Shown here: one piece after another, positions 3,440 to 4,096 of the stretch | Layout: each line of letters starts with the position of its first letter | Numbering within the stretch: position 1 is the first letter of the stretch | Assembly (NCBI GenBank): GCA_945882915.1 | Contig: CAMCWV010000002.1 | Span: forward strand, 43,821 to 107,820 | Direction: 5' to 3' | From: Waddlia chondrophila WSU 86-1044 | GTDB taxonomy: Bacteria; Chlamydiota; Chlamydiia; Chlamydiales; CAMCWV01 | DNA length: 64,000 nt | The notes under the pieces: model-generated | Database searches by the model: none | Told to the model about the DNA's origin: nothing | The model's input: the letters and a program-made list of their open reading frames with translations, nothing else | Translations under genes and position numbers: made by a program

Positions 3440-4096
3440 CCCAGACCGAGACGGCCTAGTGGTCTGTCAATATTGAAATTACGGGTGTGCGGCGCGAAAG
3501 CTCCGGGGCTTTGGCCTTGTCATTACCCACATTTTTAGGCCTTTTTCTTTCTCTCACGTTCTCTCACGCCTCTGTGTTTCAAAAATCTTAATATCTGTTT
3601 TTTGAAACACAGAGGCGTGAGAGAACGTGAGAGAAAAACAAGAGAAAAGAGAAGGGGACGCGGAGTTGGTGGTTGTTTTTTAGAAAACCGCGCAAGCGTT
3701 AGTTAAGCGGCAAGGCCGTGGCAGATGTTAGCCGTAGGTGACTGAAAGGAACCTACGGAAATGCCGACAAATAAAAACCATAAGCCGCGGACAGCGGCGG
3801 CAGATAGTTTGTCGTATCGCCACTGCCGTGGCTCAGAATCTAGGGATGAAGATTCCGTAGGTTCCCTTCAGTCACCTACGGCTAACATCTGTCACGGCCT
3901 TGCCGCTTAATTGCCGCTTACGCGGCTTTCAAAAAAGTAACGCTGCCCTACGCAGGGAGCGAAAGCGTTCAGAGGGACGAGAAATAATTTGGACTTGACA
4001 ATTCACACAGCAGAGAAATGAAAAGGTCTAAAATGTGAGTAATGACAAGGGCTTTGGCGCCGTCCAAATTCCTGTTTTCAGCTAAGAGGAGTATAG
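3440..4096. repeat. composite nested repeat: R2 fragment + variant R1 left arm + R6 element (containing R3 hairpin and R7 inverted-repeat element) + R1 right arm
   Basis: 3440-3456 R2 fragment cccagaccgagacggcc. 3459-3514 variant R1 arm gtggtctgtcaatattgaaattacgggtgtgc..gcgaaagctcc. 3515-4050 R6, bounded by ccttgtcattacccacat / atgtgagtaatgacaagg. Inside R6: R3 hairpin at 3547-3645 and R7 at 3683-3930. 4051-4095 R1 right arm ending ..cagctaagaggagtata. Confidence 0.8.

Follow-up and report, generated by a model that had tools for sequence, protein, structure and literature searches.

Nested miniature inverted-repeat transposable elements (MITEs) and other small dispersed repeats of bacteria, such as the repetitive extragenic palindrome (REP) doublets known as REPINs and the small repeats of cyanobacteria, are short palindromes that insert into one another and build layered intergenic structures. 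In this report, we describe such a case in a 64-kb stretch of contig CAMCWV010000002.1 (the window, meaning the whole stretch that was analyzed; all coordinates are window positions unless another locus is named), where an element called R6 interrupts a palindromic repeat called R1. Two described groups of insertion sequence (IS) elements are relevant for comparison. Members of the IS50 subgroup are 1350-1550 bp long, have ends of the form CW------Y---CA-A--W-, and are flanked by direct repeats of 8-9 bp (PMC2266710). ISRm22 of Sinorhizobium meliloti, a member of the IS4 family and its IS4Sa subgroup, has all of its copies on the palindromy axis of REPs, with some copies lacking perfect direct repeats through recombination (PMC1525189; PMC2266710). 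The five R6 termini of the window belong to three copies, complete in two cases (534 and 230 bp) and truncated in the third, and all three lie at one identical R1 nucleotide. Our overall explanation, which we hold to be likely, is that the R6 copies are MITEs of the IS50/Tn5 subgroup that inserted independently and by target preference at the tip of the R1 hairpin, and that carry local repeats as cargo.

The host repeat, R1, is a palindrome of approximately 98 bp that appears to be TA-flanked and is found as about 19 copies or fragments in the 64 kb, or about one per 3.4 kb (for example, at 13184-13281, 60006-60103, 39302-39465, and 5360-5405). It folds as a single long hairpin (-40.3 kcal/mol, z = -12.3) and takes three forms: a short one of about 98 bp, a long one carrying an inserted 65-bp hairpin directly after ...GCTCCCG, and a shorter form without the central ~27 nt (5360-5405 and 43292-43340). 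The R6-end 18-mer CCTTGTCATTACCCACAT is present at 3515 (+), 4033 (-, with one mismatch), 15885 (-), 60334 (+), and 60548 (-), giving five matches against 0.02 expected from shuffles of the window. Copy A (3516-4049, plus strand), of the subfamily R6a, is a complete 534-bp MITE with ends CTTGTCATTACCCACATTT and AAAATGTGAGTAATGACAAG, the latter differing by a single C>T change. Copy B (60335-60564, plus strand) is a complete 230-bp MITE with perfect 17-bp ends and an inverted repeat that reaches 43 nt at 79%. Copy C (15699-15901, minus strand) is a truncated R6a of about 200 bp, approximately 90% identical to copy A, that retains the left end and an R3 hairpin; its single end lies at 15885-15902, and the second R6 end and the left R1 arm are missing.

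These readings agree in large part with an earlier note on this DNA, which had described a 536-bp unit at 3515-4050 and a 232-bp unit at 60334-60565 interrupting R1 at exactly the same nucleotide in three places, with nesting at least three levels deep; reading the sequence bears out the layout, the shared position in all three copies, and the depth of nesting. Its third site, entered as one end only at 15878-15900, is instead the longer copy C. Each R6 copy abuts GCTTTGG, followed by the R1 arm CGCCGTCCAAATTCC. The right arm hosting copy A (4050-4095, plus strand) belongs to a short R1 variant whose left arm (~3466-3515) is diverged, while copy B lies in a long R1 variant (60208-60610, plus strand) with its 65-bp hairpin insertion at 60255-60326. 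The arm beside copy C (15902-15947, plus strand) begins with the surviving target copy GGCTTTGGC.

The ends of R6 are real terminal inverted repeats, as had been proposed, although they start with CT and not CC, the true end being 5'-CTTGTCATTACCCACAT(Y)T rather than CCTTG. The 19-bp end CTTGTCATTACCCACATYT fits seven of seven conserved positions of the IS50-subgroup consensus (5'-CW, Y9, C13 A14, A16, and W19; consensus from PMC2266710) and, aligned in register with the Tn5 mosaic end, agrees with it at 12 of 19 positions. An exact 18-mer scan of one genome per species found at least 116 loci, referred to here by L-numbers as are other contigs, where about 17 would be expected by chance according to our own estimate from the size of the collection. 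According to their record titles, the matches listed come from about ten phyla and include Acidobacteriota, Verrucomicrobiota, Planctomycetota (including Kuenenia), several cyanobacteria, Meiothermus, Anaerolineaceae, Heliomicrobium, Clostridiales, Chitinophaga, Hydrogenedentota, Binatia, and metagenome-assembled genomes of Bifidobacteriaceae. Several of the listed loci have two facing ends, either 170-410 bp or ~1.52 kb apart, and the 1.52-kb class encodes a transposase. One such element, in a verrucomicrobial genome (L047, 1631-3152), is 1522 bp long, has R6 ends, and encodes a 462-aa protein matching the NCBIfam IS4 transposase model NF033590 (290 bits) as well as the Pfam domains Tnp_DNA_bind and Dimer_Tnp_Tn5; aligned over 99% of its length, the protein is 31% identical to the Tn5 (IS50R) transposase. 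Other copies, full-length or decayed, were found at L036, L076, L087, L073, L026, and L067, together with a pseudogene copy in the cyanobacterium Hormoscilla.

The full-length relatives measure 1522-1528 bp, inside the size range of the IS50 subgroup. We observed identity at 17 of 17 nt between R6 ends and those of the 1.52-kb transposase elements in L047, L036, L076, and L087, and the ends of copy A in particular are identical to those of the transposase-encoding IS in L047, L036, and L076. The 17-bp end is invariant between transposases that are just 37-39% identical. On a Deinococcus wulumuqiensis plasmid, an annotated "IS4 family transposase" with 37% identity is bounded by the ends CTTGTCATTCCCCAAAT and a 10-bp duplication. 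R6 itself is small, present in several copies, and non-coding, with a longest open reading frame (ORF) of 49 aa. Because its ends match those of transposase-encoding elements and fit the subgroup consensus, R6 is a family of non-coding MITEs of IS50/Tn5-subgroup insertion sequences, within the IS4 family. An autonomous IS with R6 termini, such as the earlier note had envisaged, thus exists in other genomes as a Tn5-like element of the IS4 family with the same ends, but it makes duplications of 9-10 bp and not 7 bp.

Other searches with these sequences returned little. A short-query search of plasmids with the R6 end gave few matches (Nostoc, Aulosira, and Allomeiothermus), with none in Sinorhizobium and none resembling ISRm22, a text search of the literature did not find the literal R6 end sequence, no Rfam family matched R6 or R1, and a metagenome scan with a 26-nt end specific to R6a gave no match. 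The 17-mer is also present in four viral contigs of IMG/VR (L253, L254, L255, and L257), where it lies in a shared context, ttatttacaag-CTTGTCATTACCCACAT-acat.... This context is unlike that of the IS ends elsewhere and may represent an unrelated conserved sequence.

The duplication that flanks R6 is observed to be 9 bp long. Copy A lies between two exactly matching copies of GGCTTTGGC (3507-3515 and 4050-4058), copy B between GGCTTTGGC (60326-60334) and GGCTTTCGC, which has one mismatch (60565-60573), and copy C adjoins the one surviving GGCTTTGGC at 15902-15910. The shorter motif GCTTTGG does stand on both sides of the elements, at 3508-3514 and 4051-4057 and at 60327-60333 with GCTTTCG at 60566-60572, and it is present once in uninterrupted R1 copies. 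Its reverse complement is absent from the other R6 end, making it duplicated target and not R6 inverted repeat. A genuine target-site duplication had therefore been recognized previously, but its length of 7 bp needs correcting to 9 bp, and the C/G bordering R6 that had been assigned to the inverted repeat is target rather than element. The window alone would allow a length of 7, 8, or 9 bp, given a target ending in C and an element ending in G. Across 32 partner ends that the scan pattern had not selected, the base before CTTGTC was C (18), T (7), G (6), or A (1), and this variation identifies it as part of the target.

When CT ends are assumed, 14 paired copies have exact duplications (9 bp in seven, 10 bp in six, and 11 bp in one), and 10 further paired copies have a duplication with one mismatch. 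L001 (AATTCTACAC) and the Deinococcus element (AGCCAGGGGG) are compatible with CT ends only. As a control, a copy of IS50R was re-read in the same way and yielded its known ends and a 9-bp duplication (CTTTGGGAC). We rejected CC...GG ends with a duplication of 7-8 bp, as partner ends are preceded by T, G, or A and L001 fits only CT. The 9 bp seen in the window is within the 8-9 bp of the IS50 subgroup, and the 10-bp cases among the relatives are slightly outside the published range. Locally, the outcome of an insertion that duplicates its target looks the same as that of a deletion between direct repeats. R1 could accordingly be what remained when recombination between the two GGCTTTGGC direct repeats shortened an ancestral element in which R1 arms enclosed R6, with no insertion at all. 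We regard this as extremely improbable. The IS family that has the R6 ends extends over about ten phyla, with flanks there that are unrelated to R1, and R1 is present at none of the at least 116 loci of other genomes; the duplications in those genomes vary by site; and a separate ancestral composite would have to be postulated for each of the two unrelated interiors and each of the two orientations.

Targets across the family are observed to be palindromic. The flanks are non-random to about 18 nt outward of the end, with the consensus ....gGCgCgGGtTtaAg.C, and in 22 pairs that have a duplication, complementarity between the 10 nt flanking it on the left and on the right reaches 5.2 of 10 positions, compared with 2.8 of 10 in the control (p = 8e-6). 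Empty sites, when reconstructed, form GC-rich hairpins whose loop bears the duplication. In the verrucomicrobial metagenome-assembled genome JACRJZ01, six ends have near-identical palindromic flanks, and in an acidobacterial one (L041), four uninterrupted 27-nt REP-like palindromes with GTAG feet, at 2915, 3475, 5686, and 7845, lie within 8 kb beside an insertion (consensus GTAGGG(C/T)(G/A)GGTT(A/C)(C/T)TAACC(C/T)GCCCTAC). The latter palindromes are the kind of site that the R6-related IS family occupies. In the R1 hairpin, the duplication starts immediately 3' of the apical loop. With a target matrix built from other genomes only, the GGCTTTGGC site of long R1 ranks in the top 0.04% of window positions and is the single best one in that repeat (12.4 versus no more than 7.1); in short R1 it ranks in the top 0.4% and is one of the three best sites. 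Rather than being specific to R1, the choice reflects a preference of the whole family for GC-rich palindromes with a G-N7-C site on their dyad. Of the two readings offered previously, an extremely specific R6 target inside R1 or a propagating R1::R6 chimera, the preferred R1 site is favored, but as one instance of this wider preference.

The same data speak to whether R6 chooses R1 or merely survives there. Tn5 has a loose target preference (motif AGNTYWRANCT, PMC2577343), and R6 could share its weak specificity, with the copies in R1 being those that persisted in a neutral safe haven, by retention rather than targeting. All R6 copies in the window are indeed intergenic and within other repeats, and the compact genome has few neutral sites. 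Retention cannot, however, account for the use of the same 9 bp among the ~90-160 positions of R1 in three of three cases, nor for the strong palindromic signal around duplications throughout the family, and we consider it highly improbable as the explanation.

An explanation closer to the one suggested previously is that R6 entered R1 a single time and that the R1::R6 chimera then spread via R1's own transposition machinery, gaining nested repeats later. All three R6 copies in the window do sit at the identical R1 nucleotide; R1 is abundant and looks like a TA-flanked MITE able to tolerate cargo; and nothing in the family target matrix by itself would confine R6 to R1. The copies themselves tell a different story. 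Copies A and C are observed in opposite orientations relative to the asymmetric R1 core, their alignment being inverted (~90% identity) with the adjoining R1 arm on the same strand in both. Copies A and B have nothing in common beyond their 17-20-bp ends, their interiors are unrelated, and copy B lies in a long R1 variant whereas copy A lies in a short, diverged one. In addition, the R1 arms beside R6 do not cluster. Over 48 nt, the arm of copy A is nearest to an R6-free arm at 43338 (2 differences) and that of copy C to an R6-free arm at 54216 (1 difference), while the arms of A and C differ from each other at 4 positions. Many copies in one repeated palindrome are also seen in unrelated phyla that lack R1.

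An end of R6a outside R1 provides a further point. In contig L124, from another sample, the locus of copy C is joined to an R6a end (CTTGGCATT..., CTTGGCATTACCCACATTTTTAGGCC) that is flanked by 67 nt of non-R1 sequence, the end and its flank lying at L124 1-85. Those 67 nt are one more occurrence of a different GC-rich hairpin repeat, which the window has at 60836-60886 and ~39217-39281, and R6a lies directly after CCCCGTCC-TTTA-GGG, once more at a hairpin tip. The confinement of R6 to R1, raised in the earlier note, therefore stands for the window (three of three) but probably does not extend to the whole genome. Independent targeted insertion is favored over the spread of a chimera because copies A and C are oppositely oriented, the interiors of A and B are unrelated, the R1 arms are unclustered, and one R6 end lies at a different hairpin tip. 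R1::R6 does not appear to be the propagating unit, and we consider its spread quite improbable.

The cargo of the complete copies is as first described: an R3 hairpin and a whole R7 in copy A, and an R2 hairpin in copy B. The R3 hairpin (3543-3641) has 43-nt arms at 3543-3585 and 3599-3641 that are 95% complementary, the palindromic repeat R7 (3672-3941) has 89-nt arms at 3672-3760 and 3853-3941, and the R2 hairpin (60397-60502) has 31-nt arms at 60397-60427 and 60472-60502 that are 97% complementary. R2, R3, and R7 are all found outside R6 in the window as well, with R3-like copies at 22733-22830 and 8810-8888, an R2 at 7778-7868, and an independent R7 at 30030-30410 that is split by an R1 copy (30195-30265). 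This last arrangement, R1 inside R7, is the reverse of R1 > R6 > R7, and it follows that the repeat families insert into one another both ways. Copies A and C share the R3 hairpin, which indicates that the R6a version was copied after acquiring that cargo.

Comparison with another sample suggests that the inner layers change quickly. Contig L246 carries R6-A at the same site, and its identity to the window is 99.96% on one flank of the element and 99.2% on the opposite flank. Its element (7164-7472, corresponding to window 3516-4049) lacks ~215 bp of R7 (~3707-3921), so that L246, like copy C, keeps just a 23-nt terminal motif of R7, and both arms of its R3 hairpin are altered in a concerted way. 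Because L246 is near-identical outside the element yet differs in R7 and R3, the nested hairpins appear to turn over much faster than the surrounding DNA, unless the difference is an assembly artifact. The cargo does differ between copies, as the earlier note had it, but in part through later turnover of other hairpin repeats inside R6 and not through acquisition by an R1::R6 unit.

We propose the following course of events for R6 in this genome. A full-length copy would supply, in trans, a Tn5-like DDE transposase that binds the 19-bp ends CTTGTCATTACCCACATYT; for this host, such a copy is inferred. By homology with Tn5, transposition would be of the cut-and-paste type, with the transposase excising the element and integrating it through 9-bp staggered cuts that give rise to the duplication GGCTTTGGC. 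The family favors palindromes that are short and GC-rich, with a G-N7(-8)-C site on their dyad, and in this genome R1 offers that kind of site most often, at its hairpin tip and just 3' of the apical loop. Different R1 copies would then be struck at the same nucleotide by independent insertions of either orientation. R2, R3, and R7 would have entered, left, or been converted inside R6, and at least the R3-bearing R6a was copied after it had gained its cargo.

Several observations weigh against independent, targeted insertion of a mobile R6. With regard to the putative mobility of R6 in this host, no transposase with R6 ends was found in the window or in the few related contigs. There is also no empty site among the related contigs, as every one that spans a site carries the insertion (L119, L122, L123, and L246, from other samples). 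The duplication in R1 is ~7 nt off the main dyad and is centered, to within half a nucleotide, only on a weaker local palindrome, CGGGGC-TTTG-GCGCCG. Tens of window positions outside R1 score equally well or better with the target matrix, which consequently does not by itself explain why three of three copies are in R1, and in short R1 the mirror-image site scores slightly higher yet is unused. The scan pattern contained the flanking C, which inflates the apparent preference for G...C at the ends of the duplication. The evidence from L124 is limited to 67 nt where a metagenome contig ends, and the junction may have been created by the assembler; even so, it shows that such a join between R6a and non-R1 sequence exists in the population. 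Lastly, approximately 19 of the 44 paired copies in other genomes have no duplication. Some paired MITEs, including L083 (1041-1290), L093 (256-514), L027, L018, and L029, have flanks that are inverted rather than direct, with a loop that looks flipped on one side. We assume that the pairs with no duplication or with inverted flanks, L083 and L093 among them, arose by recombination between copies in identical palindromes.

Some further features of R1 and its surroundings were noted. R1 pairs overlap or adjoin at 23475-23570 and 34745-34940; the pair at 23.5 kb forms a symmetric R1 variant with both arms of the GCCAAAGC type, and the pair at 34.7 kb consists of a long R1 directly next to a partial one. 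When metagenomes were scanned with a 17-nt core of R1, the 120 loci obtained all lacked R1 and are chance matches. A Y1 transposase ORF of 142 aa (60887-61315, minus strand) lies ~280 bp from the R1 that holds copy B, with a GC-rich hairpin (60854-60876) just beyond its stop codon. The gene scores 107.5 bits with the IS200/IS605-type model NF033573 and 18.3 bits with the model for REP-associated tyrosine transposases (RAYTs), which has a cut-off of 80. R1 was considered as a REPIN of this nearby transposase, and we rejected this because the gene scores as IS200-type and not as RAYT. As for the host, the window encodes the flagellar proteins FlhA and FlhB, CsrA, and MqnA (56629-59975; whole window considered), and it holds two HIP1 sites in 64 kb. 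A cyanobacterial host was considered and rejected on account of the scarce HIP1 sites and the flagellar FlhA and FlhB. The proteins of the window fall into 90%-identity clusters of just 2-5 members, in keeping with an undersampled and apparently flagellated lineage.

The landing of R6 in R1 turns a repeat-in-repeat puzzle into a concrete mechanism, in which the transposase family has a name, the duplication is set at 9 bp, and the target can be predicted. It also illustrates how nested repeat structures are built up when a palindromic repeat serves as the landing pad of another. R6 and its nested landing are ordinary transposon behavior and a tidy nested example; no new kind of system is revealed, and the spread across phyla and the conserved ends are the only features that are even mildly unusual. 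The cross-phylum spread, the constant ends, and the apparent taste for hairpin tips may nonetheless interest those who annotate insertion sequences and MITEs in metagenome genomes and those who study target choice in Tn5. A more far-reaching idea, which we put forward tentatively and consider rather doubtful, is that these elements form a previously undescribed, pan-bacterial lineage of Tn5-like IS elements and MITEs, with a 17-bp end kept near-invariant across about ten phyla even between transposases less than 40% identical, and that their transposase recognizes the extruded tips of GC-rich hairpins (REPs, palindromic MITEs, and the end hairpins of IS200-type elements) by structure. If true, this would amount to a "safe-haven" strategy, and such hairpin repeats would be the seeds of Russian-doll repeat nests.

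Compared with IS50/Tn5, the R6 family is alike in having relatives whose transposase carries the Tn5 DNA-binding and dimerization domains and is 31% identical to IS50R, in its 5'-CT ends that fit the subgroup consensus, in the ~1.52-kb size of its full-length relatives, and in the 9-bp duplication. The duplication consensus of the family (G-T-T-T-A-A-G-N-C), with its palindromic G...C, also resembles the AGNTYWRANCT motif of Tn5 (PMC2577343). It differs in that the ends of R6-family elements match Tn5 ends at only 10-12 of 19 positions, some duplications are 10 bp long, and the 17-bp end stays constant between transposases that are 37-39% identical. The R6 family is also far more tied to extended GC-rich palindromes and has many short non-coding derivatives.

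In its choice of site, R6 resembles ISRm22 and the other IS elements that target REPs (IS1397, ISKpn1, ISPpu9/10, and ISPa11), which similarly have copies at one position of a repeated palindrome. As with ISRm22, family members in general lie on the palindrome axis, although the duplication in R1 is off the main dyad, and some copies lack direct repeats. Unlike R6, ISRm22 belongs to another IS4 subgroup with other ends and has 6-bp repeats. In the window, R6 lands at the tip of a palindromic repeat of ~100 bp that resembles a MITE and is not a classical REP, and the inserted elements there are MITEs rather than full IS. With nested MITEs and small dispersed repeats in general, the window shares layered intergenic structures whose layers turn over quickly between strains, as in L246. 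The R6 layer differs from those repeats in being traceable to a specific DDE transposase family and a defined duplication.

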